32,000 nucleotides of DNA, from assembly GCF_000014785.1 (NCBI RefSeq), contig NC_008340.1:300001-332000 (forward strand), read 5' to 3'. The notes beneath the pieces are model-generated. The model was not told where the DNA came from and searched no databases. It saw nothing but the letters and a program-made list of their open reading frames with translations. Origin of the DNA: Alkalilimnicola ehrlichii MLHE-1 (GTDB lineage: Bacteria; Pseudomonadota; Gammaproteobacteria; Nitrococcales; Halorhodospiraceae). The first letter of the stretch is position 1. Each line of letters opens with the position of its first letter. Made by a program: the position numbers and the translations under genes. This document shows positions 1-16,673 of this stretch, piece after piece.

Positions 1-655
1 TCGGCACGGGTCAGGGTTTTCCACTGGCGGGCCTCGTCCCGGGCGTAGCCCGCGCGGTCGATCTCGGCCATGGCCTGGTAGCGCGGCAGGCGCGCGAGCA
101 GGTTCGCCGGCGGCTGCCAGAGCAGACGGCAGTGGTTGTGGCCGGCCAGTCCGGTGCCGGCGAAGGCCTCCAGTCGGGCATCGACGCCGTCGCGCTCCAC
201 GGGGGCGAGGCCGTTGACGGCGAGACGCCCCCCGGCGGTGTCGAGCCCGACGCCGCCGCCCAGCGCCACGGAGACGGCGGCATGGCCGTGGAGCACGGGC
301 TCGATGTGCAGGCAGTAGCGGCCGATGGAGCGGGCATCGGGGTGATCGGCATCAAGCCCGAAGGGGACGATGACCGGCTCCGCCTTGGAGGGGTCGGGCA
401 GCTGGATGGGCGCGAGGGCGATCTCGCCACGACCGAAATCGAAGGCGTGCTGGCCGCGCAATCGCAACACGACCGGCAAGCCGTGCTGCCCGCGGGCCAC
501 GGTGGCGGTGATGCCCAGCTCGTCGAAGGCAAGGCTGGGGGCCACGCTGACCGTCCGGCCGCCGGCGTTGCCCCCGGTGTCGATGCCGGCGGTGTCCTGG
601 TAGCGGGCGGTCAGGCCGATGCGGGCGCCGGTTCCGGGGGCCTCGGTCTCCGGCT
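1..655. repeat. Direct repeat copy A (partner 2676..3330, constant offset 2675 nt, no indels seen up to about 630)
   Basis: Aligned by eye: long runs are identical, e.g. ggtcagggttttccactggcgggcctcgtcccgggcgtagcccgcgcggtcgatctcggccatggcctggtagcgcggcaggcgcgcgagcaggttcgccggcggctgccagagcagacggcagtggttgtggccggccagtccggtgccggcgaaggcctccagtcgggcatcgacgccgtcgcgctccac. Scattered substitutions occur. Similarity decays right of about 630-700 and still holds at the left window edge. Confidence 0.9.
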
Positions 656-740
656 CGCTCTGCTCCTCCGACTCGGGCCGGCGGCAGCCCCGCCAGGAGC
701 GCCAACCAGTCAGGGTGGTGACCTGCCAAAACAGGAGCAT
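1..740 (-). CDS. 5'-truncated paralog of the central region of the 1100-aa protein (partial, runs off the left window edge)
   Basis: ATG at 740..738 lies 4 nt after the Sel1 gene stop. The frame stays open to position 1, so it has no stop in the window and is missing from the ORF track. My translation is MLLFWQVTTLTGWRSWRGCRRPESEEQSEPETEAPGTGARIGLTARYQDTAGIDTGGNAGGRTVSVAPSLAFDELGITATVARGQHGLPVVLRLRGQHAFDFGRGEIALAPIQLPDPSKAEPVIVPFGLDADHPDARSIGRYCLHIEPVLHGHAAVSVALGGG... It is collinear and in the same frame as about aa 597-815 of the 1817..5119 product. No obvious Shine-Dalgarno precedes the ATG. Confidence 0.55.
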   Translation of the reverse strand, partial: MLLFWQVTTLTGWRSWRGCRRPESEEQSEPETEAPGTGARIGLTARYQDTAGIDTGGNAGGRTVSVAPSLAFDELGITATVARGQHGLPVVLRLRGQHAFDFGRGEIALAPIQLPDPSKAEPVIVPFGLDADHPDARSIGRYCLHIEPVLHGHAAVSVALGGGVGLDTAGGRLAVNGLAPVERDGVDARLEAFAGTGLAGHNHCRLLWQPPANLLARLPRYQAMAEIDRAGYARDEARQWKTLTRA

Positions 741-744
741 TTCG

Positions 745-1758
745 CTACAGGCCGTACTTGGGCGGGAAGTAGGACAGTGGGGGCTCGCGGTTCAGCCAGT
801 CCTCGGCGAGTTCTTCGGCTTCGGCGATTTCTTCGTCGGATAGGCGCTCCCCGTATCGCTCCAGAAGGCTCTCGGCCGTGCTAGCTCGTGTTTCTTCATA
901 CAGCGCGTGCAATATGGCCCACCCTTTGACGGGATCGGGTTCGTCCGGGTAGCAGTAATCAATCAACTCCCCTGGGGCGAGGTGACAAAATCCGTAGGTA
1001 ATGCGCTTCCGAATATGCCCACGCTCCGAACCTTCAACGACCCAGTTCCACGCCGCTTCCATTTTTTCTTGCCGAATTAGATTCCCCACGAGGTTGTATA
1101 TGGCCGGGGCATAGCCCTGCTCGGCGGCCTTGCGGAACCAGGGCTCGGCGGCTTCGACGTCTTTCAGCTGCGGGGGCCATTCGCCGGAGCGTTCCTGGGT
1201 GATAGTTCCCAGCCAATCTTGGGCCTCCGGGTTTCCGGCCTCGGCGGCACGTTCCAGCCAGTCTAGGGCCGTGCGGGGTTCCCCGAGCATGTTGTAGACA
1301 TCAAATAGGGTCGACATGGCGATCGGGTCACCATGTTCGGCCTTGGGTAGTTCCTGCTCGAGAGCCTTGTCCACCCACGCTTCATATTTCTCGGGGCAAA
1401 TGTCAGCCAACTTGCAGATCATGCCGTGTTCGAGCCGGAGCATGGCATGGGGATCCCCGCCCTGCGCCGCGCGGTGGTACCAGTCGATGGCCTCGCGGGA
1501 CATGCCGCGATCCAGTAGCCGGTTCGCCTCGCCCAGGTAGTAGATGGCCTCGACATCACCGGCCCCGGCCGCTTCTTCCAGCGGCGGCTGCATGTCGATC
1601 CATTCATGCAGGCCCCACAGGCGCATTCCTTCTTCTTTAGCCTGTTGCTGCTCGGCATTGAGCTTCAGGGATGTTTTGTCTTCTCCATCGTTGGGTTGAG
1701 CCGTGCCGGCCCATAAGCCAACGATGAGGATGAACACTAGAATTTTTTTGCGGGGCAT
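745..1758 (-). CDS. Secreted Sel1-like repeat (SLR/TPR-family) protein, 337 aa; candidate immunity/partner protein
   Basis: The internal ATG at 1758 of track ORF 745..2169 gives MPRKKILVFILIVGLWAGTAQPNDG. That is a basic n-region, a hydrophobic core and an AxA-like site with no lipobox Cys. Repeated Sel1-type motifs are present (GDVEAIYYLGE...AIDWYHRAAQGGDPHAM; ALDWLERAAEAGNPEAQ; EPWFRKAAEQGYAPAIYNL). The longer 474-aa version would overlap the upstream gene by about 350 nt. Confidence 0.8.
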   Translation of the reverse strand: MPRKKILVFILIVGLWAGTAQPNDGEDKTSLKLNAEQQQAKEEGMRLWGLHEWIDMQPPLEEAAGAGDVEAIYYLGEANRLLDRGMSREAIDWYHRAAQGGDPHAMLRLEHGMICKLADICPEKYEAWVDKALEQELPKAEHGDPIAMSTLFDVYNMLGEPRTALDWLERAAEAGNPEAQDWLGTITQERSGEWPPQLKDVEAAEPWFRKAAEQGYAPAIYNLVGNLIRQEKMEAAWNWVVEGSERGHIRKRITYGFCHLAPGELIDYCYPDEPDPVKGWAILHALYEETRASTAESLLERYGERLSDEEIAEAEELAEDWLNREPPLSYFPPKYGL

Positions 1759-1816
1759 TGCCAAGACCTTTGTTAACCCTGAGCAAACTGGCTCTTGTCG
1801 CCGCACGCTTGCCTTT

Positions 1817-4800
1817 CTACTGAATGTGACGGGAAAGCCAGCCGGCATTCTGTCTGTATTTCCATTGACGGTCCTGTTGCTCCAGCTGTCCGCTGCCTGC
1901 TGACATGAAATTGTCCAGCCGCCCTCGGTTCTCGGCATACGCATCGGCCCTCGATTCGTCGGTAGGCTGTCCGTCTCGGGCCATGCGCACCACGGCCTTT
2001 TCAAACAGCTTCTGCGCCGGGTGCGGGTGCTCTGCGGAGAAGTCGCGTCGGGGGCCGTAGACGCCGGCCATGACGCCGGAGACGATCCATTGCAGGCAGT
2101 TGAGGATCGCCCGTTGGTGGAACACAAGAGCCTGTTCACGCCCGAACCGCTGTACTTGCTTCTGGCCATCCCGCTGAATCTCCACCTCGAACGCCTGCGG
2201 CCGACTGGTCAGGGTGTATAACAGCGGCCCCAGGGCCTCGGGCGGTAGCTGGCGCACCCAGGCGGCAATGGCGTCCCGTTGCGGGTCGTTGACGATGGTG
2301 TAGGCGATCCGGCTGGCCATGTCCCGGTCCCGGGTAAACCACTCGATCATCTGGCGCAGTCGGTGGGTGCCGCGCAGCAGGAGCAGGGCGGGTTCGACCA
2401 GGGTGATGGCGGCGAGATAGGCCAGGCGGCTCATCTCCTCGAAGGCGTCTTCGTCGATCCAGTCGACGCGCTCGTAGCCGACCTCCACCAGCGCCTGGTG
2501 CATCATGGCGAGCCAGAGGTCGAGGTGGCGGGGGTCAAGCGCCAGGCGCACGCTGCCCCCGCCGCCGACGCCGAGCACCAGGCGCAGGGAGGCGTGCAGC
2601 ACGAAGCGGCCGTTGTGCAGGCCGAGCCGGAAGGCGGCCTCGCCGCCGACGCCGACGCGCACCTCGGGGTTGATCTCGGCGGCGGTCAGGGTTTTCCACT
2701 GGCGGGCCTCGTCCCGGGCGTAGCCCGCGCGGTCGATCTCGGCCATGGCCTGGTAGCGCGGCAGGCGCGCGAGCAGGTTCGCCGGCGGCTGCCAGAGCAG
2801 ACGGCAGTGGTTGTGGCCGGCCAGTCCGGTGCCGGCGAAGGCCTCCAGTCGGGCATCGACGCCGTCGCGCTCCACGGGGGCGAGGCCGTTGACGGCGAGA
2901 CGGCCCCCGGCGGTGTCGAGCCCGACGCCGCCGCCCAGCGCCACGGACACGGCGGCATGGCCGTGGAGCACGGGCTCGATGTGCAGGCAGTAGCGGCCGA
3001 TGGAGCGGGCGTCCGGGTGATCCGCCTCCAGCCCGAACGGGACGATGACCGGCTCCGCCTTGGCGGGATCGGGCAGCTGGATGGGCGCGAGGGCGATCTC
3101 GCCACGGCCGAAGTCGAAGGCGTGCTGGCCGCGCAATCGCAACACGACCGGCGAGCCGTGCTGCCCGCGGGCCACGGTGGCGGTGATGCCCAGCTCGTCG
3201 AGAGCGAGGCTGGGGGCCACACTGACCGTCCGGCCGCCGGCGTTGCCCCCGGTGTCGATGCCGGCGGTGTCCTGGTAGCGGGCGGTCAGGCCGATGCGGG
3301 CGCCGTTTCCGGAAGCGGCTGTCTCCGGTTCGGCCTGCGCCACGGGTCCGGGCCGGCGCAGCCACAGGGGTGCCTCCCCGGACAGCGCCCGGTCGCGCCG
3401 GTCGGGCTCGGCGTATGCGCCGGCCAGCAGGCGCAGGAGCTGCGCCGGGCCACTGGCATCGAACAGGCGCATGGGGTGGTTGAGCGGGTCGGCGAACAGG
3501 ATCCGGCGCAGGCGCCGGCCCCACTCCTCCCGGGCGCTGTCGTCGGCAAGGCGGTCGATGACCAGGCCCTGGTGGTCGAGGTCGTGGAAGAAGCGTTCCG
3601 GCTCGAACAGCCCGAGCGGCTCGCTGTGCCAGTCGGGGTTCCAGTCGAGCCGCCGGCAGCCGCGTCGGGTGAGCCACCCGGTCAGTGCCGTGTCGGGCAG
3701 GGAGCGGGGCTCGGTGACCGTGCGGCTGTCGTGCGCGATGGCGGCATCGCGCTGGCGGGCGTAGTGGGGGCGGGTCTCGCCCAGCTGGTGCAGGCTCAGG
3801 TGATCGAGGGTGCGCTGCCGACCGGGGCCGCTGAACTCGCGCAGGGGGAAGTCGGCGCGCACCAGCCGGTGGATCGGGGGCGGGCGGTAGGGTTCGGGGT
3901 CGCGGATGTCGTCGGGGCCCAGGTCCCAGTGCAGGACGCGCCTCGGGCGCGTGCGGTCCACCCGGCGCCGGGCCGTGCGGTAGAGGCGGTCCATGCGCTC
4001 GCGCAGCCGGTCGAACCGCGCCTGCTCGTCGGTGAACAGGAAGATGGGCAGCGGGGTGGCCCGGCCCGTGCCCTGTTCCCACTCCCTGAGCCGCGTGTCC
4101 ACGTCCTCGCGCAAGGCGTCGAGTTCGTCCAGGGTCGCGAAGTAGCGGGCCACGTAGTCCACGCCGTCGGCGAAGCCGGCGTCCGGGTCCTCAGCCAGCG
4201 CCAGCTCGGGGGTGGCCACGCCCAGCCCGGCCAGCTCGATGAGACTGTCGATGTAGTGGCGGTAGTCCTGCTCCAGTTGCGGGATGTAGTGCTCGATCAC
4301 GGAGGCGATCTCGCAGCGTTCGACGGCCTCTGGTACCGGGTCCTGGTCGCAGAGCGCCACATGCCGGCGGTATTGCTCCAGGATCTTATGGAGCGGCCGC
4401 GTCGGTGGCAGGCCCTGACCCTGTTCCAGGTGGGACCGAGCACCCTGGAAAGCAAGCTCCCGCCGCCGGTGATAGCGCTGCAGCGCCTCGCGGATGCGCG
4501 CCTCGCTGTCGCCGTGGACCAGGGCGCTATCGACGACATAGCCGGCCTTCTCGGCCTTGTCCAGGCCGCGTTGATAAAGGGCCTGAAGTGCGTCGAGATG
4601 GTCGTTGCTCTCGTGGATGCGTGCCGGTTCCGGGCATTGGGTCGGTACGGCCGAAGGCATTGAATGGTCGCCGGACCAGGATTGCGAGGTGCTCACGCTG
4701 GTGGTGCCCTGGAAAGGCACGCCGTCCACCACCCGTTGCAGCAGCGTGTCCGGGGCCTCGTCCTGAAGGGCGGCGAGCTGCTGGAGGGTCTGCGCGAACC

Positions 4801-5119
4801 GTTGGCGGTCCGCTTCCCCCAGGAAACTGACCGGATGCGCGGGCAGGAAGCTGTCCAGCACGCCCGCCTCCTCGGACAGCCGCCGGTTGCGCTCGTCGCG
4901 GTCGTCCACGGCGGCGATGTCGGCCAGCTTGTCGGCCGCGTGGTGCATCGCGGCGGCGGCTGTGGCGTTGAGCAGCCAGAACTCGCCGGAGCCGGTGAGA
5001 TAGACGATGTCCGCCCACAGGAACGTTGCGCACAGGGGGCGCGGGTCTTCGTGGAAGAGGTCGTCGTCGCGGCCGCGCGGTCCCGCGGGCCAGACCTGGG
5101 GGGCGATGGAGTCGGTCAT
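1817..5119 (-). CDS. Large hypothetical protein, 1100 aa, no recognisable family; candidate effector/toxin
   Basis: Uninterrupted 3.3-kb ORF with strong GC3 bias in this frame. The 794-aa plus-strand ORF 2279..4663 has the G/V/A/Q/H-rich look of an antisense shadow. No N-terminal signal peptide (MTDSIAPQVWPAGPRGRDDDLFHEDP). The central part is Gly-rich with an alternating, beta-like pattern. The C-terminal part is helical-looking with hydrophobic stretches (LAYLAAITLVEPALLLL, AILNCLQWIVSGVMAGVYG). Confidence 0.85.
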   Translation of the reverse strand: MTDSIAPQVWPAGPRGRDDDLFHEDPRPLCATFLWADIVYLTGSGEFWLLNATAAAAMHHAADKLADIAAVDDRDERNRRLSEEAGVLDSFLPAHPVSFLGEADRQRFAQTLQQLAALQDEAPDTLLQRVVDGVPFQGTTSVSTSQSWSGDHSMPSAVPTQCPEPARIHESNDHLDALQALYQRGLDKAEKAGYVVDSALVHGDSEARIREALQRYHRRRELAFQGARSHLEQGQGLPPTRPLHKILEQYRRHVALCDQDPVPEAVERCEIASVIEHYIPQLEQDYRHYIDSLIELAGLGVATPELALAEDPDAGFADGVDYVARYFATLDELDALREDVDTRLREWEQGTGRATPLPIFLFTDEQARFDRLRERMDRLYRTARRRVDRTRPRRVLHWDLGPDDIRDPEPYRPPPIHRLVRADFPLREFSGPGRQRTLDHLSLHQLGETRPHYARQRDAAIAHDSRTVTEPRSLPDTALTGWLTRRGCRRLDWNPDWHSEPLGLFEPERFFHDLDHQGLVIDRLADDSAREEWGRRLRRILFADPLNHPMRLFDASGPAQLLRLLAGAYAEPDRRDRALSGEAPLWLRRPGPVAQAEPETAASGNGARIGLTARYQDTAGIDTGGNAGGRTVSVAPSLALDELGITATVARGQHGSPVVLRLRGQHAFDFGRGEIALAPIQLPDPAKAEPVIVPFGLEADHPDARSIGRYCLHIEPVLHGHAAVSVALGGGVGLDTAGGRLAVNGLAPVERDGVDARLEAFAGTGLAGHNHCRLLWQPPANLLARLPRYQAMAEIDRAGYARDEARQWKTLTAAEINPEVRVGVGGEAAFRLGLHNGRFVLHASLRLVLGVGGGGSVRLALDPRHLDLWLAMMHQALVEVGYERVDWIDEDAFEEMSRLAYLAAITLVEPALLLLRGTHRLRQMIEWFTRDRDMASRIAYTIVNDPQRDAIAAWVRQLPPEALGPLLYTLTSRPQAFEVEIQRDGQKQVQRFGREQALVFHQRAILNCLQWIVSGVMAGVYGPRRDFSAEHPHPAQKLFEKAVVRMARDGQPTDESRADAYAENRGRLDNFMSAGSGQLEQQDRQWKYRQNAGWLSRHIQ
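2676..3330. repeat. Direct repeat copy B (partner 1..655), inside the 1100-aa CDS
   Basis: See copy A. It corresponds to about aa 597-815 of the large protein. Confidence 0.9.
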
Positions 5120-5271
5120 GCACGGGGCTCCCGGGCCGCCTCGCGCAGGCGTCGCTGATGGTGCAGCAGCGTCAGCCAGTTGTGGGCATCGACGCGCAGG
5201 CCGATCCGAGTGGGTGGCGCCTCAGCGCCTGCGCGCGGCAGGGGAAAGTACAGTCCGTTGTCTTGTTGCAT
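5116..5271 (-). CDS. Possible 51-aa leader/partner ORF, translationally coupled (ATGA overlap) to the 1100-aa gene
   Basis: Below the track size cutoff. My translation is MQQDNGLYFPLPRAGAEAPPTRIGLRVDAHNWLTLLHHQRRLREAARPRA-like (ends ...EPRA). GGAG lies 5 nt upstream of the ATG at 5271. Its TGA stop (5118..5116) overlaps the ATG (5119..5117) of the large gene. About three quarters of its codons end in G/C. Confidence 0.3.
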   Translation of the reverse strand: MQQDNGLYFPLPRAGAEAPPTRIGLRVDAHNWLTLLHHQRRLREAAREPRA

Positions 5272-5307
5272 GCCGGCTCCGTGGCATAAGTCCATGATTC
5301 CGTCTGC

Positions 5308-5336
5308 AGTCTATGGGGCCCGCGTCCCTTCATCAA
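5308..5336 (-). promoter_or_regulatory. Candidate sigma70-type promoter for the leader ORF / 1100-aa gene
   Basis: The minus strand reads TTGATG (5336..5331), a 17-nt spacer, then TAGACT (5313..5308). It lies in the relatively AT-richer gap between the rsmA stop and the leader ORF. This is a pattern match only. Confidence 0.3.
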
Positions 5337-5373
5337 GTCGACGCATTGTGAGGATAAGAGGGCATGGGGCGGC

Positions 5374-6198
5374 TCAAGGAGTATCTCTGCTTGCGTTCCG
5401 TTTTGTTCTGGTGTGGGCCTGGCTCAGGGCGGCAAACTGCTCCAAGGACAGATTCTCGGCCCGTTCTCGGGGGTCAATTCCGACTCCGATAATGGTGTCA
5501 GCGGACATTAACGGGCGCAGGGTGTTGCGTAGGGTCTTGCGGCGCTGGGAGAAGGCCTGGGTCACCAGCCGGGCGAATGCCTGCTCGTCGCCTACGTCCA
5601 CCGTGGGTTCGGCGTGCGGCACCAGCCGGACGAAGGCGGAGTCCACCTTGGGCGGCGGGCGGAAGGCGCCCGGCGGTAGCCGGAACAGGTTGGTGACCGC
5701 GCAGCGGTACTGCACCATTACCGACAGCCGCCCGTAGGTCTTGCTGCCGGGCGGTGCGGCCAGCCGCTCCACCACCTCCTTCTGCAGGGTGAAGTGCATG
5801 TCCTGGATGACATCGGCGCTCTCCAGAAGGTGGAAGAGCAGCGGGGTGGAGATGTTATAGGGTAGATTGCCCACCACCCGCAGCCGTGCTGGCGGTGCTG
5901 GGGCCAGCTGGCGGAAGTCGAAGCGCAGGGCATCGGCCTGGTGCACGGTCAATTCACCGGCGGTGCGGGCCCGCGCCTGCAGCGGGGCCACCAGGTCGCG
6001 GTCCAGCTCCACGGCGGTCAGCCGCCCGGCGGCGCGCAGCAGCGGCAGGGTGAGTGCCCCCTCGCCGGGGCCGATCTCCACCAGGGGGTCGCCGGGCCGG
6101 GGGCGGATGGCCTTGACCATGCGGGAGATCAGTGTGGGATCGTGCAGAAAGTTCTGCCCGAAGCGCTTGCGGGGGCGGTGGCGGCGGTGGTTGTTCAT
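5374..6198 (-). CDS. rsmA: 16S rRNA (adenine1518/1519-N6)-dimethyltransferase
   Basis: 274 aa. N-terminus [28 protein letters not shown] and [14 protein letters not shown] motif, typical of KsgA/RsmA. Confidence 0.95.
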
Positions 6199-6278
6199 GC
6201 CACGCAGTTTATCCGGCTGCGCCCGCTGCGGAAATGGGCGATGCTCGTATGCAACGTGGCAAGTCGGGAGACAGGCAG

Positions 6279-6920
6279 ATGATCAACACCACCGTGCGTC
6301 GGCTGGGCGGCACGTTCTTTAAGGGGTTGGCGGCAATCCTGCCCGCCGTGGTCACCGTTTATGTGTTGTGGTGGCTGGGCAGCACCGCCGAGGCCATCCT
6401 CGGCGGCCTCATCCAGTGGGTGTTGCCCACCAGCTTCTACATCCCCGGACTGGGTTTGATTGCGGGGGTCGGTCTGGTCTTCGCCCTGGGGGTGCTGCTC
6501 CAGGCCTACGTCTTTCGGCGCATCTGGGAGTGGGGCGAGGGGCTGATGACCCGCCTGCCGGTGATCAAGACCATCTACGGCGCGGTTCAGGACTTGATGG
6601 GCTTTTTCTCCGGCGACGCCACCCGCAAGATGCAGCAGGTGGTGGTGGTGGACCTGCCCGGCGTGCCCTTCCGCCTGCTCGGCATCGTCACCCGGGAGGA
6701 CTTCTCCCAATTGCCGGACGCGCTCGGCGGCGGGGACACCATCGCGGTCTATACCCCCATGAGCTACCAGATCGGGGGCTACACGCTGATGCTGCCCCGG
6801 GACTGCGTGCACCCCATCGATATGAGCGTGGAGGATGCCATGCGCTACGCGGTCACGGCCGGCATGTCGATAAAAAAACCCACGCCTGCTCCGGGCCCAT
6901 CACCCGGTGAGAATCATTGA
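6279..6920 (+). CDS. DUF502 family membrane protein
   Basis: Start chosen at the ATG 8 nt after GGGAG (6266..6270). Begins [33 protein letters not shown], has two hydrophobic helices, then [14 protein letters not shown], characteristic of DUF502. The start could instead be 6249. Confidence 0.8.
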
Positions 6921-7185
6921 CGGGTGCTGGCAAGACGGGTTTCGGGTAACTATGATGGTTTGCGGACCATAACGACGGGGTCATGCTGCGGCTCGGGAGC
7001 CCGGCCGGCATCACAATGAGAACAGCCGGTCTGGGTTTCGAGGCCTGGCCCCTAAACATAACGAAGCCGCCACCAGTCTCGGCTGACGCGGATACAGGGC
7101 CCAAAAGGCCCGGTATTTCGGGACCTCCGACTCCGGATCCCTGCCGCTGACGCCGCGCGCGTGGCTAAACCCAAGAGGTGAACCC

Positions 7186-9873
7186 ATGGCTGCAGTTGAA
7201 CCCCTCCCAGAGGGTGATGTTGATCCGCTCGAGACCCGGGAGTGGCTCGAGGCACTCGAGGCCGTTATCGAGGAGGAGGGCCCCGAGCGCGCCCAGTACC
7301 TGCTGGAGCAACTGGTCGAGAAAACCCGCCGACGCGGCGGCGTGGCCCCCTTCAAGGCCACCACTGCGTACGAGAACACCATCCCCCGCCACCTTGAGGC
7401 CCGCTCCCCCGGAGACCACCAACTGGAGTGGCGCCTGCGTTCGATCATGCGCTGGAACGCCATGGCGATGGTGGTGCAGGCCAACAAGGAGCATGACGGT
7501 ATCGGGGGGCACATCGCCTCCTACGCCTCGGCGGCGACGCTCTACGAGACCGGTTTCAACCACTTCTGGCATGCGCCGTCGGACGAGCACGGCGGCGACA
7601 TGGTCTTCATCCAGGGCCATTCGGCGCCCGGTATCTATGCCCGGGCATTCCTCGAGGGCCGCCTCACCGAGGATCAACTGCACAATTTCCGCCAGGATGT
7701 CGGAGGTGAAGGCGTTACCTCCTATCCTCACCCCTGGCTGATGCCGGAGTTCTGGCAGTTTCCCACCGTCTCCATGGGGCTGGGGCCGATCATGGCCATC
7801 TACCAGGCCCGGTTCATGAAGTACATGCATGACCGCGAGGTCATCGACACCGAGGGCCGCAAGGTGTGGGCCTTCATGGGCGACGGTGAGATGGACGAGC
7901 CGGAGTCCTTGGGGGCGATCGGCTTGGCCGCCCGCGAGAAGCTGGACAACTTGGTGTTCGTGGTCAACTGCAACCTGCAGCGGCTGGACGGCCCGGTCCG
8001 CGGTAACGCCAAGATTATCCAGGAGCTGGAGGGCGAGTTCCGCGGCGCCGGCTGGAATGTCATCAAGCTGATCTGGGGCTCCGGCTGGGACGCGCTGCTG
8101 GAGCGCGACCGCACTGGGCTGCTGCGCAAGCGCATGGAAGAGTGCGTGGACGGCGAGTACCAGAACTTCAAGGCCAAGGGCGGTGCCTACACCCGCGAGC
8201 ACTTCTTCGGCAAGTACCCGGAGCTCAAGGACATGGTGGCCCACATGTCCGACGAGGAGATTGCCCGGCTCAACCGCGGCGGCCACGATCCGCACAAGGT
8301 CTACGCCGCCTACCACGCGGCGGCCAACCACAAGGGCCAGCCCACCGTCATCCTGGTGAAGACGGTGAAGGGCTACGGCATGGGCGAGGCCGGCGAGGGC
8401 CAGAACATCACCCACCAGCAGAAGAAGATGGGTGAGGCGGCGCTCAAGGCCTTCCGCGATCGGTTCGATATCCCGATCCCGGACGATAAGATCGCCGAGG
8501 CGCCCTTCTACAAGCCGGACGATGACAGTCCGGAGATCAAGTACCTGCACGAGCGCCGCCAGGCGTTGGGTGGCTACCTGCCCAGTCGTCGCACCGAGGC
8601 GGCGCCGCTGAAGGCGCCGGCGCTGTCCGCCTTCGACGTGCTGCTGAAGGACAGCGGCGACCGCGAGATGTCCACCACCATGGCCTTCGTGCGGGCGCTG
8701 ACCATCCTCACCCGCGACAAGGACCTGAAAAAGCACATAGTACCCATCGTGCCGGACGAGGCGCGCACCTTCGGCATGGAGGGGCTGTTCCGCCAGCTGG
8801 GCATCTACTCCTCCGTCGGTCAGCTCTACACCCCGCAGGATGCGGATCAGCTGATGTATTACAAGGAGGACAAGAAGGGGCAGATCCTGCAGGAGGGGAT
8901 CAACGAGGCCGGTGCCTTCTCCTCCTGGATTGCGGCGGGCACCAGCTACAGCAACCATGGCGTGAACATGGTGCCCTTCTACGCCTACTACTCCATGTTC
9001 GGCTTCCAGCGCATCGGGGACCTGGCCTGGGCCGCCGGCGACATGCAGGCGCGCGGCTTCCTGATGGGCGGTACCGCCGGCCGCACCACCCTGAACGGCG
9101 AGGGGTTGCAGCACGAGGATGGCCACAGCCACCTGCTGGCCTCGACCATCCCCAACTGTCGGGCCTATGACCCCACCTTTGCCTACGAGATGGCGGTGCT
9201 CATCCAGGACGGGCTGCGGCGGATGTACGTGGATCAGGAGAACTGCTTCTACTACATCACCATGCTCAACGAGAACTACCGGCAGCCGGCCATGCCCAAG
9301 GGTGCCGAGGAGGGCATCGTCAAGGGCATGTACCTGTTCCGCGAGGGCAAGAAGAGCTCTGGGAGGAAGAAGGCCCCGCGGGTGCAGCTCATGGGCTCCG
9401 GTTCCATCCTGCGCGAGGTGATTGAGGCGGCCGACCTGTTGCAGCAGGACTTCGGCGTGGAGGCGGACATCTGGAGCGTTACCTCCTTCACCGAGGTGCG
9501 CCGTGAGGGCATGTCCGCCGAGCGCTATAACACGCTGAATCCGGAGACGAAGAAGCCCCGGGTGCCCTACCTGCAGGAATGCCTGAAGGGGCGCGCGGGG
9601 CCGGCGATTGCGGCGACCGACTACATGCGCACCTTCGCCGACCAGATCCGTCCTTGGATGGATCGCACCTACCGGGTGCTGGGCACGGACGGCTATGGCC
9701 GTTCGGATACCCGCGAGAAGCTCCGCCAGTTCTTCGAGGTGGACCGCTACCACGTGGCGGTGGCCGCACTGAAGGCACTGGCCGATGACGGCGTCGTGCC
9801 GGTGGCTAAGGTCTCCGAGGCCATCCGTAAGTACGGCGTGGACCCGGAGCGGCCCGACCCCTGGACGGCCTAG
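7186..9873 (+). CDS. aceE: Pyruvate dehydrogenase E1 component (homodimeric type)
   Basis: 895 aa. DVDPLETREWLEALEAVIEEEGPERAQYLLEQL N-terminus, GHSAPGIYARAFLEGRL and GDGEMDEPES ThDP-binding motif. Confidence 0.97.
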   Translation: MAAVEPLPEGDVDPLETREWLEALEAVIEEEGPERAQYLLEQLVEKTRRRGGVAPFKATTAYENTIPRHLEARSPGDHQLEWRLRSIMRWNAMAMVVQANKEHDGIGGHIASYASAATLYETGFNHFWHAPSDEHGGDMVFIQGHSAPGIYARAFLEGRLTEDQLHNFRQDVGGEGVTSYPHPWLMPEFWQFPTVSMGLGPIMAIYQARFMKYMHDREVIDTEGRKVWAFMGDGEMDEPESLGAIGLAAREKLDNLVFVVNCNLQRLDGPVRGNAKIIQELEGEFRGAGWNVIKLIWGSGWDALLERDRTGLLRKRMEECVDGEYQNFKAKGGAYTREHFFGKYPELKDMVAHMSDEEIARLNRGGHDPHKVYAAYHAAANHKGQPTVILVKTVKGYGMGEAGEGQNITHQQKKMGEAALKAFRDRFDIPIPDDKIAEAPFYKPDDDSPEIKYLHERRQALGGYLPSRRTEAAPLKAPALSAFDVLLKDSGDREMSTTMAFVRALTILTRDKDLKKHIVPIVPDEARTFGMEGLFRQLGIYSSVGQLYTPQDADQLMYYKEDKKGQILQEGINEAGAFSSWIAAGTSYSNHGVNMVPFYAYYSMFGFQRIGDLAWAAGDMQARGFLMGGTAGRTTLNGEGLQHEDGHSHLLASTIPNCRAYDPTFAYEMAVLIQDGLRRMYVDQENCFYYITMLNENYRQPAMPKGAEEGIVKGMYLFREGKKSSGRKKAPRVQLMGSGSILREVIEAADLLQQDFGVEADIWSVTSFTEVRREGMSAERYNTLNPETKKPRVPYLQECLKGRAGPAIAATDYMRTFADQIRPWMDRTYRVLGTDGYGRSDTREKLRQFFEVDRYHVAVAALKALADDGVVPVAKVSEAIRKYGVDPERPDPWTA

Positions 9874-9951
9874 ACCCTCCAGAACCGGCCCGGGGCGGTG
9901 TGTCCCGGGCCCTGTCGAGTCGCAAGCCCAGCAGCCGGAAGGAAGAACAAC

Positions 9952-11649
9952 ATGGCAGACGTCAAAGAAGTCCGCGTCCCCGATATCGGTGATTTCGCCG
10001 AGGTGGACGTGATTGAGGTGCTGGTCGCCCCCGGCGACCGGATCGAGAAGGAGCAATCGCTGATCACCCTGGAGTCGGACAAGGCCTCCATGGAGGTGCC
10101 CTCCAGTGAGGCCGGGGTGGTCAAAGAGGTCAAAATCAAGGTGGGCGACAAGGTCTCCGAGGGGGACGTGGTCGTCTTGGTGGAGGCCGAGGAGGGCGGT
10201 GATTCGCCCGCCGAGGCCCCGACGGGCAGCGACGCCGGGGCGTCCGCCCCAGCCGCCGGCGGTTCCGATGCCCCAGCCGCCGGGGGCGGTGAGGCCGTCC
10301 AGGTGAAGGTTCCGGACATTGGTGATTTCGCCGAGGTGGATGTCATTGAGGTGCTGGTCAGCCCCGGTGACACGGTGGAGCAGGAGCAGTCGCTGATCAC
10401 CCTGGAGTCGGACAAGGCCTCAATGGAGGTGCCTTCGAGCCACGCGGGCGTGGTCAAGGAGGTCAAGGTCAAGGTGGGCGACAAGGTCTCCGAAGGGGAT
10501 ACGGTCGCCGTGCTGGAGAGCCAGGGTGCCGGTGGGGGTGCCACGGCCTCCGCGCCAGCCAAGGAGGCAGGGGAGGCGGCAAAGCCGTCCCAGGAGCCGG
10601 CCGAGACCTACGCCGCTGACAGCCAGCGCGAGGCCGCGGCGCCGGAGAGCTACAAGGCGAACGCCTACCTGCTCACCGACTCCCGTCCGCCCCAGGCACC
10701 GCCGCCCATCGACCGCGAGGCCCATCGCCGCGCCCACGCCAGCCCGGCGGTCCGCCGCTTCGCCCGTGAGCTGGGCGTGGATCTGGGCCAGTTGCAGGGC
10801 AGGGGCTCGGGCCGCAAGGGGCGCATCCTCAAGGAGGACGTCCAGGCCTACGTCAAGCAGGCCCTGGCGGGGGGCGGAGCGGCCGCGGCACCGGCCGGGC
10901 AGGCCGGTGGCGCCGGCATCCCGCCCATCCCCGAGGTGGACTTCAGCAAGTTCGGCGAGGTGGAGCGCCAGCCGCTCTCGCGCATCCAGAAGCTCTCCGG
11001 GCCGCACCTGCAGCGCTCCTGGCTCAATGTGCCCCACGTCACCCAGTTTGACGAGGCGGACATCACCGAACTGGAGGCCTTCCGCAAGTCGATGAAGACC
11101 GAGGCGGAAAAGGCCGGGGTCAAGCTGACCCCGCTGGCCTTCATGGTGAAGGCCTCCGCGGCGGCGCTGCGGGCCTTCCCGCGCTTCAACAGCAGCCTGG
11201 CGCCGGCCGGTGATGAGCTGATCCTCAAGAAGTACGTGAACATTGGCGTGGCGGTGGATACCCCCAATGGCCTGGTGGTACCGGTGATCCGCGATGCCGA
11301 CCGGAAGAGCGTCTACCAGATCGCCGAGGACCTGGGCACGCTCTCTGCCAAGGCGCGTGACGGCAAGCTGGGGCCGTCGGACATGCAGGGCGGTTGCTTC
11401 ACCATTTCCAGCCTGGGCGGCATCGGCGGTACCGCCTTCACGCCCATCGTCAATGCGCCCGAGGTGGCCATCCTCGGGGTCTCCCGCTCGTCCATGAAGC
11501 CGGTCTGGAACGGCAGCGAGTTCGAGCCGCGGTTGATGCTGCCACTGTCGCTGTCCTACGACCACCGGGTGATTGACGGCGCCGCCGGCGCCCGGTTCAC
11601 CGCCTGGCTGGCTCAGGCCCTGGGCGACATTCGCCGGCTGTTGCTGTAA
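9952..11649 (+). CDS. aceF: Dihydrolipoyllysine-residue acetyltransferase (PDH E2), two lipoyl domains
   Basis: ATG at 9952 after GGAAGGAAG. Two lipoyl domains ([15 protein letters not shown] twice), an E3-binding domain ([16 protein letters not shown]) and a catalytic domain ending in the [12 protein letters not shown] active-site motif. Confidence 0.95.
10383..10493. repeat. 111-nt stretch identical to 11767..11877 (aceF lipoyl domain 2 versus lpd lipoyl domain)
   Basis: Base-by-base comparison: ggagcagtcgctgatcaccctggagtcggacaaggcctcaatggaggtgccttcgagccacgcgggcgtggtcaaggaggtcaaggtcaaggtgggcgacaaggtctccga is identical in both places. aceF lipoyl domain 1 (about 10050..10170) has several mismatches to both. 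Confidence 0.9.
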
Positions 11650-11668
11650 CCGACGGGGGATACCCGAG

Positions 11669-13450
11669 ATGGCAGATTTGGTAGAAGTGAAGGTTCCGGA
11701 CATCGGCGACTTCGACGCGGTGGACGTCATCGAGGTGCTGGTCAGCCCGGGTGACGAGATCGAGGTGGAGCAGTCGCTGATCACCCTGGAGTCGGACAAG
11801 GCCTCAATGGAGGTGCCTTCGAGCCACGCGGGCGTGGTCAAGGAGGTCAAGGTCAAGGTGGGCGACAAGGTCTCCGAGGGGGATGTGGTCTGCACCCTCG
11901 AGGCGGCTGAAGCCACGGCCGGGGGCGAGGCCCCCGCCACCGGCGGCGGCAGGGCGGAAAAGCCCGCCGAGCCGGAACCGCCGGCCGCGGCCACCAGGCC
12001 CGCCCCGGCGGCCGCCCCGCAGGGGGATGCCCCGGTGGACGCCGACTGCGACGTGCTGGTACTGGGCGCCGGCCCGGGCGGCTACACCGCCGCCTTCCGG
12101 GCGGCGGACCTGGGCCTGAAGACGGTGCTGGTGGAGCGCTACCCGACCCTGGGGGGCGTTTGCCTGAACGTGGGCTGCATTCCCTCCAAGGCTTTGCTGC
12201 ACGCGGCCAAGGTGATCGACGAGGCGGAGCAGTTCGCTGACCACGGCATCACCTTCGGTAAGCCCAAGATCGACATCCGCAAGCTGGCCGACTGGAAATC
12301 CAGCGTGGTCAAGAAGTTGACCGGCGGACTGGCCGGTCTGGCCAAACAGCGCAAGGTGGAGGTGGTGACCGGCAAGGGGGCCTTCAAGGACGCCTACCAC
12401 CTGGAGGTGGACGGTAAGGAGGGCAAGCGCACCATCAGTTTTCGGCACTGCATCATCGCCGCCGGCTCCCGGCCGGTGGTCCCGCCCCCGCTGGCGGTGG
12501 ACGACCCCCGGGTTATGGACTCCACCGGCGCGCTGGAGCTGGAGGAGGTGCCGGAGCGGCTGCTGGTGGTCGGCGGTGGCATCATCGGCCTGGAGATGGC
12601 CTGTGTGTACGACGCGTTGGGCAGCAAGGTGACGGTGGTGGAGCTGGCGGACCGGCTGATGCCGGGCGCGGACGCCGATTTGGTGAAGGTGCTGCGCAAG
12701 CGCATCGATAAGCGCTATGACGCCATCCACCTGAACACCCTGGTCAAGGAGCTGAAGCCCAACAAGAAGAGCATCACGGTGAAGTTCGAGGGCAAGGACG
12801 CGCCGGAGAGCGACCGGTTCGACCGGGTGCTGCTGTCGGTGGGGCGCCGGCCGAACACCGACCTGATCGGCCTGGAGGCCACCGGGCTCAAGCCCAATGA
12901 TCAGGGTTACATCGACGTCGATGAGTATATGCGCACCGGTGTGTCGCACATCCATGCCATTGGTGACATCGTCGGCCAGCCGATGCTGGCACACAAGGCG
13001 TCGCACGAGGGCAAGGTGGCGGCGGAGGTTATCGCGGGCGAGAAAAGCGCCTGGGATGCCCGGGCGATTCCATCGGTGGCCTACACGGACCCGGAGGTGG
13101 CCTGGGTGGGCATCACCGAGGAGGAGGCGAAGGCGCAGGGGATTGCGTACGAGAAGGGCGCCTTCCCCTGGGCCGCCAACGGACGGTCGCTGTCGCTCAA
13201 TTACCAGGACGGGATCAGCAAGCTGTTGTTCGACGAGCAGTCGGGGCAGCTGATTGGCGCCGGCATCGTCGGCCCCAACGCCGGTGACCTGATCGCCGAG
13301 GCGGCCCTGGCCCTCGAGATGGGCGCGGAGGCGGCGGACATCGGCCTGACGGTGCACCCGCACCCAACCCTGTCCGAGACCGTGGCCATGGCCGCCGAGG
13401 CGGCGGAGGGGACGCTGACCGATCTCTATATCCCCAAGAAGAAGAAATAG
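11669..13450 (+). CDS. lpdA: Dihydrolipoyl dehydrogenase (E3) with N-terminal lipoyl domain
   Basis: ATG at 11669 gives [15 protein letters not shown]..., a lipoyl domain with SDKASMEV. An Ala/Pro linker follows, then DVLVLGAGPGGY FAD fold, the redox-active GGVCLNVGCIPSK and C-terminal HPHPTLSE. Confidence 0.93.
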   Translation: MADLVEVKVPDIGDFDAVDVIEVLVSPGDEIEVEQSLITLESDKASMEVPSSHAGVVKEVKVKVGDKVSEGDVVCTLEAAEATAGGEAPATGGGRAEKPAEPEPPAAATRPAPAAAPQGDAPVDADCDVLVLGAGPGGYTAAFRAADLGLKTVLVERYPTLGGVCLNVGCIPSKALLHAAKVIDEAEQFADHGITFGKPKIDIRKLADWKSSVVKKLTGGLAGLAKQRKVEVVTGKGAFKDAYHLEVDGKEGKRTISFRHCIIAAGSRPVVPPPLAVDDPRVMDSTGALELEEVPERLLVVGGGIIGLEMACVYDALGSKVTVVELADRLMPGADADLVKVLRKRIDKRYDAIHLNTLVKELKPNKKSITVKFEGKDAPESDRFDRVLLSVGRRPNTDLIGLEATGLKPNDQGYIDVDEYMRTGVSHIHAIGDIVGQPMLAHKASHEGKVAAEVIAGEKSAWDARAIPSVAYTDPEVAWVGITEEEAKAQGIAYEKGAFPWAANGRSLSLNYQDGISKLLFDEQSGQLIGAGIVGPNAGDLIAEAALALEMGAEAADIGLTVHPHPTLSETVAMAAEAAEGTLTDLYIPKKKK

Positions 13451-13757
13451 CAGCGCCGCGGGGTGCCTTGCGCCCTCGCTTATCGTGGCCGTCGGGGTTT
13501 AGGCTCTGGCGGCCTTTTTGTAGCTGGATAAGTCGTGATCGTCCGTGGTGGTTCGTGGGTCCGTGGGCTTGCGGTGACCCGCCCCACCAACGGCCTCCGG
13601 GGGGGTTCTTGGTCAGCGGGGCTTGCGGCGGCGTCACGGAGACCAATGCGGCCCGCGGGCAGTACCTCGGGATCAATCGGGGCGCACAGGGGCGCACTGG
13701 GGCAGCCAGGGTGGCACGAGAGCAGCCTTCCGCGAGCCAGTACCCTTTCAATCGACA

Positions 13758-13865
13758 GGGGCGAGGCGGGGGTTCGGATGCGAATCGTAGGCAGCAGGGA
13801 TGCTGCCTACGAGCCCCCATGGATGGGTTTACGGCGTATTCGCATCCGAACCCCCGCCTCGCCCC
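13758..13865. repeat. Nested perfect palindrome (28-bp outer arms plus inner 11-bp hairpin with GGGA loop)
   Basis: ggggcgaggcgggggttcggatgcgaat (13758..13785) is the exact reverse complement of attcgcatccgaacccccgcctcgcccc (13838..13865). Immediately inside, cgtaggcagca (13786..13796) pairs with tgctgcctacg (13801..13811) around GGGA. It lies in a 510-nt non-coding gap between convergent lpd and prmC. Confidence 0.85.
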
Positions 13866-13962
13866 GTTCCGCGGCTTCCCGCAGCCACCGGGCCTAAGGC
13901 CTCTTCAGCCTTCTCCCTACCCCCGACATCCAACCGCCGACACACCCCGTCCAGGCGCGCTG

Positions 13963-14850
13963 TCAGTCCAGCCGCCCGACCGTCACCCGCTCATGCCCGG
14001 CCAGGTCCCGCAAGGTCTCCACCCCGCCGAACCCGGCCTCCAGGAACAGTCGGCGCACCGCCTCCCCCTGCTGAAAACCGTGCTCCACCATCAACCAACC
14101 GCCGGCCACCAGATGCCCCGGCGCCTCGCCGACGATCCGCCGCAGGTCACCCAGCCCGTCCCGTCCGGCCGCCAGCGCCGACCGCGGCTCGAAGCGCACA
14201 TCGCCCTCATACAGCTCAGGCTCGTGGACGCCCACATAGGGCGGATTGCTCACCACCAGATCAAAACGCTCACCGGCCAGTGGGCCGAACCAGGACCCCG
14301 CCACCACCTGCACCCGATCCGCCAGCCCTAACCGGCGGGCGTTCTCCCGGGCCACCACCAGGGCCCCGGCGCTGGCCTCCACCGCCGTCACCCGCCACGC
14401 CGGACACTCATCCGCCAGCGCCAGCGCAATGGCCCCGGTGCCCGTGCCCAGGTCCGCCACCCGGAGCTGCCGGTCGCCGTCAACCCGGGCCAGCGCCGCC
14501 TCAACCAGCAGCTCCGTCTCCGGGCGGGGGATCAGCGTCTCGGCCGTCACCTTCAGCTCCAGCGACCAGAAACCGCGGCGGCCCGTCAGGTGCGCCACCG
14601 GCTCGCCGGCCAAACGGCGGGCAAGGAGTTGCCGGAAGCGGGCCAGGCTGGATGCCGGCGGACGGTGCTCGGGATGGGCCAGGAAAAAAGCGCGATCGCG
14701 CCCCAGCGCGTGCGCCAGCAGGGCATCGGCGTCCGCGGCCGGCGAGTCGCTGCCCGCCGCCTCCAGTCGGGTGCGGGCGGACCGGCGCAGCTCGGCCAGG
14801 GTGGGCTGCGGCGGGGTGGAGCCCGTGGCGGGGTGCGCTTCCCGGGTCAC
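13963..14850 (-). CDS. prmC: Peptide chain release factor N5-glutamine methyltransferase
   Basis: 295 aa. GEPVAHLTGRRGFWSLEL, LIPRPETE, DLGTGTGAIALALA SAM motif and VVSNPPYV catalytic motif, collinear with E. coli PrmC/HemK. GTG start at 14850 overlaps the upstream stop (GTGA). Confidence 0.92.
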   Translation of the reverse strand: MTREAHPATGSTPPQPTLAELRRSARTRLEAAGSDSPAADADALLAHALGRDRAFFLAHPEHRPPASSLARFRQLLARRLAGEPVAHLTGRRGFWSLELKVTAETLIPRPETELLVEAALARVDGDRQLRVADLGTGTGAIALALADECPAWRVTAVEASAGALVVARENARRLGLADRVQVVAGSWFGPLAGERFDLVVSNPPYVGVHEPELYEGDVRFEPRSALAAGRDGLGDLRRIVGEAPGHLVAGGWLMVEHGFQQGEAVRRLFLEAGFGGVETLRDLAGHERVTVGRLD

Positions 14851-15122
14851 GCCTCGGTGGTCGGCCGGGCGGCGGAGGCCGGGATGGCGCGCTCCTCCAG
14901 CATGATCGGGATGCCGTCCTCCACCGGATAGATGCGCTGATCGTTCTCCGTGATCAGGGCCTCACGCAGCGGCGTCTCCACCGGGCTGTCGTCCATATGC
15001 CGCACCTCGCCCTGCTCGATCCGCTGGTTGAGTCGCTTCAGGGCATCCGCCTCCAGCAGGCGCACCGGCTGCTTGGTCACCGGGCAGCACAGTATGTCCA
15101 GCAATTTCTTGTCCAGGCTCAT
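14847..15122 (-). CDS. Trm112/YcaR (UPF0434) family protein, 91 aa with a central insertion
   Basis: MSLDKKLLDILCCPVTKQPV ... RIYPVEDGIPIMLEERAI matches the N- and C-terminal halves of the Trm112-like fold as in E. coli YcaR. About 30 extra residues lie between them. Confidence 0.8.
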   Translation of the reverse strand: MSLDKKLLDILCCPVTKQPVRLLEADALKRLNQRIEQGEVRHMDDSPVETPLREALITENDQRIYPVEDGIPIMLEERAIPASAARPTTEA

Positions 15123-15306
15123 CGTTGCGGGCTCGACTGCAAAAAGTGGGTCTCCAGTATAGCACCGGGCACCGCCAGCCCGGTTCCGGTAAGGGCAAGC
15201 CTTGCCGCCCGGCGATGCCGCTCAAGACCTGGCGGCGTCTGCCGTTTATTGGCCCAGGACACAACGGTTCGCCAACGGGCGGATTTCAGGCATTGGGGGG
15301 ATACCC

Positions 15307-16554
15307 ATGGTGGAACACGAGCCTCAACACCAGGCAAGGGGTGAGCACCGACAGGACCACGCGCACTGCTCCTTCTGTGGGCGCCCCGAGGACCAGACTG
15401 GGCCGCTCATCGCCGGGGCGGAGGCGTGGATCTGTGAAGACTGCGTGGCCGAGTCCAAGGCGCGGCTGGACAGCGAATTCACCGGATCACTGACCGACCA
15501 GCTGGCCGGTCTGTCCACCCCGAGGCAGCTGCACGCCCACCTGGACGGCTACGTGATCGGACAGGAACGGGCCAAGCGCCAGTTGGCGGTGGCCGTCTAC
15601 AACCACTATAAGCGACTGATCTGGCGCGGTGCCCGCCGGCCCGGTGAGGTGGCCAAGAGCAATATCCTCATGGTCGGGCCCACCGGCAGTGGCAAGACCC
15701 TGCTGTTGGAGAGCCTGGCCCGCCACCTGGAGGTGCCCTTCGTCACCGCGGACGCCTCCACCTTCACCGCCGCCGGTTATGCCGGGGCCGATGTGGATGA
15801 CATCGCCGTCCGGTTGCTGGAGGCCGCCGGTGGTGATCCTGCCGCCGCGCGTCGGGGCATGGTCTTTCTGGACGAAGTGGACAAGCTGGCATGCCGCGCA
15901 CCGGGCGGCAGCGGTAACGGTCGCGACTTCTCCGGTGAGGGGGTGCAGCAGGCGCTGCTGCGTCTGCTCGAGGGGCGGGTGGTTAACGTGCCGCGCCGGG
16001 GCCGCGGGGGCGGCGTCCACAGCGTGGACACCCGCGACGTGCTGTTTGTCTGCGGCGGCGCATTCCAGGGGCTGCGTCAGCAGATGGCCGGGCGTCGCGC
16101 CGGCGGTGGCGTGGGCTTCGGGGCCCGCCTGGCCGAGACCGCCGAACCGCCGGCAGTCCCGGATGCGGACGACCTGGTGCACTACGGACTGATCCCCGAG
16201 CTGGTGGGACGGCTGCCGGTGGTCACCACCCTGGAGGCATTGAGCGAGGCACAGCTACTGGAGGTCATCAGTCGGCCGCGCAACGCCCTGCTGCGCCAGT
16301 ACCAGGCACTGTTCCGGCAGGACGGCTGTGAGCTGCACTTCACCGCCGGCGCCCTCGAGGCCCTGGCCCGGCGCGCCGCCGAGCGCGGCACCGGTGCCCG
16401 TGGTCTGCGCGCGGAGCTGGAGCGCCTGTTGCTGGAACCCATGTACCACGTTCCGGCCCGGGGCGATGTCGAGGCCGTGGTGGTTACGACCGAGTCAGTG
16501 GCTGGGGCACCTGTGCGCTACTGCAGAAGCCAGGCCTTGCGGCAGGTGGGTTAG
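15307..16554 (+). CDS. ClpX-like AAA+ unfoldase paralog (divergent pore loops)
   Basis: 415 aa from the ATG at 15307. C4 zinc-binding domain CSFCGRPEDQTGPLIAGAEAWICEDC, Walker A GPTGSGKT, Walker B MVFLDEVDK, sensor-2 GARGLR. It is collinear with E. coli ClpX but has GYAG for GYVG, VGF for IGF and a shortened region without R-K-H. It is not next to clpP or lon. Confidence 0.85.
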   Translation: MVEHEPQHQARGEHRQDHAHCSFCGRPEDQTGPLIAGAEAWICEDCVAESKARLDSEFTGSLTDQLAGLSTPRQLHAHLDGYVIGQERAKRQLAVAVYNHYKRLIWRGARRPGEVAKSNILMVGPTGSGKTLLLESLARHLEVPFVTADASTFTAAGYAGADVDDIAVRLLEAAGGDPAAARRGMVFLDEVDKLACRAPGGSGNGRDFSGEGVQQALLRLLEGRVVNVPRRGRGGGVHSVDTRDVLFVCGGAFQGLRQQMAGRRAGGGVGFGARLAETAEPPAVPDADDLVHYGLIPELVGRLPVVTTLEALSEAQLLEVISRPRNALLRQYQALFRQDGCELHFTAGALEALARRAAERGTGARGLRAELERLLLEPMYHVPARGDVEAVVVTTESVAGAPVRYCRSQALRQVG

Positions 16555-16673
16555 GCAGCCGGTGCCCGCCTTGCGTAACAGTAAGTTTGGCGGTAAGGGG
16601 CTGGAGCGGCTAATATGTCGCCCTTGTGTCCAACTAGTCGGCCCTTGTAGTGGCCGGGAGCACCGAACCGCCT

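Follow-up and report, generated by a model that had tools for sequence, protein, structure and literature searches.

Periplasmic Sel1-like proteins are known in type VI secretion systems (T6SS) through the Tle5 effectors, which are vgrG-linked and are neutralised by Tli5 proteins of this type encoded in tandem paralogous arrays. The closest analogue of the effector family described here is the BTH_I2691/VasX/Tke5 family, for which a cryo-EM structure, that of Tke5-Tap3, is cited in PMC13133200. The present analysis concerns the beginning of a 32,000-nucleotide (nt) stretch of the genome of Alkalilimnicola ehrlichii MLHE-1 (NC_008340.1, positions 300,001 to 332,000), referred to as a whole as the window. 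Within it, the reverse-strand gene at 1817-5119 encodes a protein of 1,100 amino acids (aa) identical to ABI55621.1 and WP_011628017.1 of A. ehrlichii MLHE-1 (exact database identity). According to our analysis, this protein is very likely an antibacterial T6SS cargo effector of an unnamed family, and its antidote is most likely the product of the neighbouring Sel1-repeat gene. The system is of a known kind, while the effector family has neither a name nor a model in Pfam or NCBIfam.

The identification as a T6SS cargo effector is made because of the gene context found in relatives. Among 23 related loci, which comprise Halomonadaceae, Marinobacter, Pseudomonas, Vibrio and a second locus in A. 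ehrlichii, 21 show the order vgrG, DUF4123 adaptor gene, effector gene and one or more Sel1 genes, optionally preceded by hcp. This order was seen in Halomonas, Billgrantia, Vreelandella, Onishia, Halovibrio, Marinobacter, a Pseudomonas metagenome-assembled genome and Vibrio ruber, and it is also present in a metagenome relative whose protein is 71% identical to the window protein. T6SS core genes adjoin two of the loci, encoding VipA/B and TssE/F/G in one case (L002) and TssA and TssM in the other (L023). Such an order is standard for VgrG-dependent cargo effectors that have a Tap/Tec adaptor and a periplasmic immunity protein, and the effector N-terminus is polar and free of a Sec or Tat signal peptide, as expected of T6SS cargo. 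A PDB sequence search with a DUF4123 adaptor gave no match. As side observations on these loci, the scan of the genome collection gave no Alkalilimnicola locus although the window fits the pattern, and the assembly there may differ or be masked. In Halomonas olivaria AP019416 (L019) and H. sulfidaeris AP019514 (L021) the effector and immunity genes are split over several frames, as is vgrG in the latter, which reflects either pseudogenisation or assembly frameshift errors.

The domain layout of the effector, collected with the other features in Table 1, was derived from an AlphaFold2 model built on a 37-sequence alignment (mean predicted local distance difference test score [pLDDT] 68, predicted template modelling score 0.61); an earlier model from 7 sequences (pLDDT 46) was too poor for use. 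The original prediction, made from the sequence of the window, had described a protein of three parts without a placeable motif, and this description is correct, while the identity of the locus as a T6SS effector/immunity pair was not recognised in it. Its N-terminal part of about 600 aa was said to be acidic, Arg-rich and helical, with no signal peptide and no transmembrane segment, and composition, hydropathy scan and model all agree with this. Residues 1-587 carry a net charge of -24, with 11.9% Arg and 0.7% Lys, and contain no 19-residue window with a Kyte-Doolittle (KD) hydropathy above 1.22, hence neither a signal peptide nor a transmembrane segment. This half begins with a small alpha/beta subdomain, followed in the model by long helices at aa 164-570; the subdomain was modelled with pLDDT values of 72-91 (as ten-residue block means) and is weakly detectable in LysM-class relatives too (profile positions 4-131); conserved residues in its region are C30, Y40, F47, W48, L49, R77 and F99. 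Further along the N-half, E305, E428 and R563 are invariant in the family, and D554 and S442 are nearly so.

Table 1. Features of the effector locus, with coordinates in the window
Feature	Position	Strand	Basis or remark
Effector gene, putative member of an unnamed T6SS cargo-effector family	1817..5119	-	ATG start, 1100 aa
N-terminal alpha/beta subdomain, aa 33-135	4715..5023	-	Beta-hairpin and helices in the model
Central helical region, aa 164-570, acidic and Arg-rich	3410..4630	-	DSSP on the model; composition
Variable low-confidence linker, aa 575-658	3146..3397	-	Poor conservation in the alignment; orphan copies start within it
Gly-rich amphipathic beta region, aa 659-860	2540..3145	-	Model strands; first part of the putative toxic module
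C-terminal helical domain, aa 861-1100	1820..2539	-	Second part of the putative toxic module
Hydrophobic helix, aa 899-917, LAYLAAITLVEPALLLLRG	2369..2425	-	Sole family-conserved hydrophobic helix
Polymorphic tail, aa 941-1100	1820..2299	-	Putative immunity-specificity region
Putative immunity gene (337 aa; Sel1 repeats behind a Sec-type signal peptide)	745..1758	-	Pfam Sel1, 1.2e-8
Orphan copy of the effector C-half	1..740	-	Open reading frame (ORF) from an ATG at 740, cut by the window edge
vgrG remnant: ribosome-binding region and about 16 codons	5116..5295	-	Fused into a 51-aa ORF, 5116-5271

The second part had been proposed to be Gly-rich with beta structure, which the modelled strands and the period-2 hydropathy bear out; its boundaries, however, had to be refined into a linker at aa 575-658, with pLDDT values below 50 over aa 575-665, and a beta region proper that follows it. 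Gly and Ala amount to 14.7% and 15.4% of aa 588-860, seven GxxxG motifs fall within these 273 residues of the Gly-rich part, and 24 of the 25 strongest windows of period-2 hydrophobic alternation in the family profile lie within aa 650-865, the single exception being near aa 410. Residues of the beta region that are conserved over 84 sequences are G708, G720, F761, G763, W776 and P779, and further G823, G825, G837, G850, G852 and G855. The C-terminal domain was modelled with about 11 helices and one beta-hairpin (aa 977-992) over aa 863-1096 at block-mean pLDDT values of 71-94. Both hydrophobic stretches that had been reported in it are present, but only aa 899-917 is conserved in the family, with a KD of 1.61 in the window protein, a family mean of 1.38 and 6% charged residues. 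The other, aa 1004-1022, is hydrophobic in this lineage only (KD 1.37 vs a family mean of 0.26 in the nearest scored window, aa 997-1015). In relatives the C-terminal helical domain is always accompanied by the beta region, and the earlier suggestion that the third part is a functional tip linked to the downstream secreted protein gains support in a more precise form, with the second and third parts as one module.

The absence of a placeable motif was likewise reproduced by every search that we carried out. The 1,100-aa protein has no match in Pfam or NCBIfam, the PDB sequences gave none either to the single protein or to the profile, Foldseek with the medium-confidence model returned nothing below E 0.18 in the PDB or in the viral predicted structures of BFVD, and a motif search found no HKD, GxSxG or HExxH motif. 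While a word-index homolog search had yielded six relatives only, the exhaustive profile search revealed a family of 422 cluster representatives (50% identity clusters) at E<=1e-3, 66 of them below 1e-30, with members in Halomonadaceae, Marinobacter, Pseudomonas, Vibrio, and Alkalilimnicola and its relatives. All three parts are present in about 50 representatives, and the beta-plus-helical module is in addition attached to other N-termini, for example in proteins of 1200-1390 aa that start with LysM. When Pfam and NCBIfam were run on the window protein and 37 relatives, only LysM-type matches were obtained, with an N-terminal LysM peptidoglycan-binding domain in 11 of the 37 full-length members. 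The public names in 11 sampled clusters are "hypothetical", "LysM domain-containing" and, once, a murein endopeptidase/NlpD-type name, and we found no literature specific to this effector family or to T6SS in Alkalilimnicola.

Vibrio ruber illustrates how far the association extends, since its distant LysM-class effector keeps the beta-plus-helical module, the DUF4123 context and Sel1 homologs (E 2e-9), which carry a single N-terminal membrane anchor. Beside this, we observed that V. ruber AP024905 (L022) encodes a pair of LysM-class effectors, 1340-1345 aa in length. Behind the one at 8001-12023 lie four anchored Sel1-like genes of about 380 aa (12027-19466), three of which are in turn followed by a small reverse-strand ORF of 59-62 aa. 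Behind the upstream effector (1-3337) there is a further anchored Sel1-like gene, with a reverse-strand ORF of 58 aa. This recurring unit may be a mobile or recombining cassette.

The gene deemed to encode the immunity protein lies 58 nt downstream of the effector gene. Its product begins with MPRKKILVFILIVGLWAGTAQP, a signal peptide of the cleavable Sec type, and matches solved Sel1 proteins down to 1e-19. In all loci for which downstream sequence is available, Sel1 homologs stand directly 3' of the effector gene, in 1-6 tandem copies. With regard to base composition, the GC content at third codon positions (GC3) is 0.71 in the immunity gene vs 0.90-0.93 in the N-terminal and beta parts of the effector and 0.85-0.90 in neighbouring genes, the effector C-domain being intermediate at 0.81; this pattern agrees with a foreign or recombinant origin of a tail-plus-immunity cassette. 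As a further side observation, four to six tandem Sel1 paralogs follow a single effector in Halomonas and Billgrantia (L017 9194-14895; L008 9230-13646; L009 9225-13178), and these large arrays have no orphan toxin fragments to match them.

In the window, the effector gene follows ksgA and is surrounded by housekeeping genes. A stretch of 71 nt upstream (5295-5225) matches the vgrG start region of the paralogous island (L024 7075-7148) with 81% identity (E 1.6e-13), and the 51-aa ORF at 5116-5271, which overlaps the effector ATG by 4 nt, starts with MQQDNGLYFPLPRAGAE and aligns there with the VgrG N-terminus MPIDNGLYLALSRPGAAE. Beyond this remnant, the window matches the island again only from 20 nt ahead of the effector ATG, with 96.6% identity onward. 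The window locus is therefore a vgrG island copy that has lost vgrG and the adaptor gene by deletion. We had also considered the 51-aa ORF as a 3' remnant of a DUF4123 gene and rejected this, as the similarity was marginal and the island comparison shows its 5' end to be the vgrG remnant.

The island itself is found in a second strain, CP184336, with which the window shares 99.1% identity over its first 12 kb. A second locus of this sister strain reads vgrG-DUF4123-effector (1095 aa)-Sel1-orphan-Sel1-orphan-Sel1, and its effector is a paralog, 95% identical, of the window effector. Since MLHE-1 entries fall into the same 90% protein cluster as this second-locus effector, MLHE-1 probably carries a vgrG-DUF4123 island as well. 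The window effector is 99.3% identical over aa 1-135 to the paralog that adjoins vgrG and the adaptor gene, so loading in trans is plausible. The effector frame is intact, and the codon changes between the strains, 52 of them synonymous and 31 non-synonymous, suggest that the gene is under purifying selection. Apart from this, the distribution of the differences deserves mention. Across 12 kb, 88 of the 110 between-strain differences lie in 500-bp bins spanning 2001-5000, and all 31 non-synonymous changes are at aa 323-931 (window 2001-4500 against L003). There is one difference in the immunity gene and none in 6001-12000, which holds most of the pyruvate dehydrogenase genes. The cluster at aa 323-931 looks like an imported or converted allele segment, not like point-mutation drift. 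Eleven of the remaining differences are clustered in 5501-6000 (ksgA/rsmA), beside the degraded vgrG-island junction, in an otherwise near-identical flank.

Downstream of the immunity gene, and starting 4 nt after its stop codon, an orphan ORF repeats the C-half of the effector. Window positions 1-689 are 94.8% identical at the nt level to 2676-3363 (aa 586-815; blastn), the orphan is 96.7% identical to effector aa 602-814 (tblastn), and homology to the effector begins at aa 586-588. The duplication noticed in the original prediction is thus real; its confinement to the Gly-rich part is not, and it seems confined there because the window ends at that point. The counterpart in CP184336, 543 aa long, corresponds to aa 588-1099, and a second Sel1 gene comes after it. 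Halomonas and Onishia, too, have orphan C-halves paired with Sel1 genes of their own, and C-terminal fragments each followed by an immunity gene were recorded in four loci (L003, L024, L002 and L010). As for its origin, the start of the window orphan (690-740), VTTLTGWRSWRGCRR, is similar to effector aa 477-490, TALTGWLTRRGCRR, after which the similarity skips to aa 588, so the orphan may stem from a longer fragment after an internal deletion between short CRR/RRP repeats.

Comparison of these copies localises the variation to the end of the protein. Between the two full-length paralogs, identity amounts to 98.5-100% in aa 1-940, 84.6% in aa 941-1000 and 70% in aa 1001-1100, and the window Sel1 protein is 62-74% identical to the three Sel1 proteins of the second locus. 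Likewise, the five C-half copies in the genome of the sister strain are 95-100% identical over aa 669-940 and then differ in several patches, namely aa ~940-952 (an indel cassette), ~978-1000, ~1017-1019 (VMA vs AQN, as seen in the alignment) and ~1070-1100, which appear in mosaic combinations. Halomonas sp. I1 shows the same pattern of tail polymorphism. The segment that co-varies with the downstream gene, a survey of which had been proposed earlier, is accordingly made up of the C-terminal ~160 residues.

From gene context and the Tke5-Tap3 precedent (PMC13133200), we propose that aa 33-135 would be held by the DUF4123 (Tap/Tec) adaptor and placed on the VgrG spike, which in the case of the window effector would take place in trans, via the vgrG and adaptor of the second locus. 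The predicted site of action is the periplasm of target bacteria, because the Sel1 proteins carry a signal peptide or membrane anchor and because LysM occurs among the full-length members. The toxic module most likely consists of the beta region and the helical domain together (aa ~659-1100), because this module recurs as orphan cassettes and behind unrelated N-termini, with a Sel1-type gene after it wherever downstream sequence is available. The Sel1 protein, in turn, would bind the polymorphic tail (aa ~940-1100), as this tail differs between copies whose immunity genes also differ, and the orphan tail-plus-immunity cassettes may constitute a recombination reservoir able to change immunity specificity.

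How the module would act can be approached from its conserved positions, which, at a threshold of >=75% over 84 diverse sequences, are Gly, Pro, Trp, Phe, Leu, Ala, Ile and Met plus one Gln. Because of these residue types, the amphipathic strands, the Gly-rich turns and the one conserved hydrophobic helix, we give slightly less than an even chance to the view that the module damages or permeabilises the membrane without catalysis. A more specific version, which we put forward tentatively as a possibility of somewhat lower standing, is that aa ~659-1100 represent a new kind of membrane-permeabilising T6SS toxin domain, neutralised by a soluble periplasmic Sel1 protein that recognises the mosaic tail. 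Under that reading, pore-former-like toxicity, enzyme-style immunity and Rhs-style cassette switching would be combined, and neutralisation by a soluble Sel1 protein would set the module apart from every characterised T6SS pore former. If true, a pore former neutralised by a soluble protein would mean a new immunity logic for membrane-targeting T6SS toxins.

Several points weigh against delivery by the T6SS and non-catalytic membrane damage as proposed here. The window locus has neither vgrG nor an adaptor gene, the beta region was modelled at low confidence (block-mean pLDDT about 30-77), Foldseek against PDB with the medium-confidence model found no pore-former match, and the T6SS pore formers VasX, Tke5, Tse4 and Ssp6 have membrane-embedded immunity proteins (PMC13133200). 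The invariant acidic residues E305 and E428 of the N-half could, moreover, be catalytic. Immunity through soluble periplasmic Sel1-like proteins is known best from phospholipase effectors (Tle5/Tli5), and tandem Sel1 arrays resemble the Tli5 arrays of Pseudomonas PldB; this type of immunity therefore points towards an enzyme and is the chief objection to non-catalytic membrane damage. On such grounds the T6SS effector could be an enzyme that attacks a periplasmic substrate, either peptidoglycan or a membrane lipid, with a catalytic site unrecognised in the C-half or in the conserved N-half and with the Sel1 protein blocking it as Tli5 blocks Tle5. The soluble, tandemly arrayed immunity protein, the LysM domains and the invariant or nearly invariant residues of the N-half named above all fit this explanation, which we regard as unlikely and yet as a serious competitor. 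No hydrolase match was obtained in Pfam, NCBIfam or PDB (by sequence or Foldseek), the HKD, GxSxG and HExxH motifs were not found, and the immunity-linked module is devoid of conserved His, Ser, Cys, Asp, Lys and Glu over the 84 sequences. In addition, the orphan cassettes lack the N-half, and LysM is present in the pore-forming BTH_I2691 family too (PMC13133200).

The missing vgrG and adaptor gene bear on a different explanation, namely that the window copy is a stranded remnant that is no longer delivered, in a locus retained chiefly for its immunity genes and as material for recombination. The deletion that left about 16 vgrG codons, the finding of no promoter-like or terminator-like site in 1-6400 of the window, and the frequency of orphan copies and immunity arrays in the family are all in its favour. 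T6SS effectors encoded away from vgrG are well known, however, and the window copy keeps an intact frame of 1,100 codons with the between-strain changes described above, the vgrG ribosome-binding region upstream and an N-terminal segment close enough to that of the adaptor-adjoining paralog for trans-loading to be plausible, so that we consider a stranded remnant improbable. More doubtful still, in our view, is that the protein is a divergent member of the pore-forming VasX/Tke5 (BTH_I2691) family and not of a separate one. Its similar length (~1000-1100 aa), the DUF4123 dependence in relatives, the optional LysM and one faint NF041559 match of a distant relative (P0130, E 0.07) would agree with membership. 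On the other hand, no match to NF041559 or Pfam VasX_N was obtained with any of 38 family proteins, and the central MIX motif hRxGhhYhh is found in none of 94 long members. The immunity protein is a soluble Sel1 protein and not a membrane protein, the window family has an extra helical C-domain of ~240 aa, and a single conserved hydrophobic helix stands against five predicted transmembrane segments in Tke5.

With the protein read as a T6SS effector and the Sel1 protein as its partner, recognition of the pair adds a toxin family that is undetectable by current Pfam and NCBIfam models, and the tandem Sel1/TPR genes of these genomes thereby gain a likely role as immunity arrays. The five tail/immunity variants of the sister strain would offer a compact natural system for recombination-driven rewiring of immunity specificity.

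Compared with known systems, the window family shares with the BTH_I2691 family (VasX of V. cholerae, Tke5 of P. putida and Ptx2 of P. aeruginosa; NF041559, VasX_N/MIX_II) a length of ~1000-1100 aa, the character of VgrG-dependent cargo with a DUF4123 adaptor gene directly upstream, LysM in some members, and an antibacterial action from the periplasmic side, predicted in the case of the window family, without a catalytic motif. It differs in having no NF041559/VasX_N match and no MIX motif, in its secreted Sel1-repeat immunity protein as opposed to a small membrane protein, and in its extra helical C-domain with a polymorphic tail, one conserved hydrophobic helix and orphan tail/immunity cassettes. 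With the Tle5 (PldA/PldB) phospholipase D effectors of P. aeruginosa, only the type of immunity is alike, whereas the window protein has no phospholipase D motif (HxKxxxxD), no PLDc Pfam match and no sequence similarity to them. With the Rhs/CdiA polymorphic toxins (Zhang et al. 2012, PMC3482391), only the logic of the orphan cassettes is alike: a body that is constant at the N-terminus, a C-terminal end that varies and has a cognate immunity gene as its partner, downstream promoter-less C-terminal fragments with their own immunity genes, and mosaic recombination. Rhs/YD repeats, PAAR, a filamentous haemagglutinin body (Pfam) and a VENN-type demarcation motif, however, are absent from the window family. 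Whereas the Rhs/CdiA tails are unrelated toxin domains, the tails here are alleles of one fold, 70-85% identical, and the orphan copies include about 350 residues of near-identical constant sequence.

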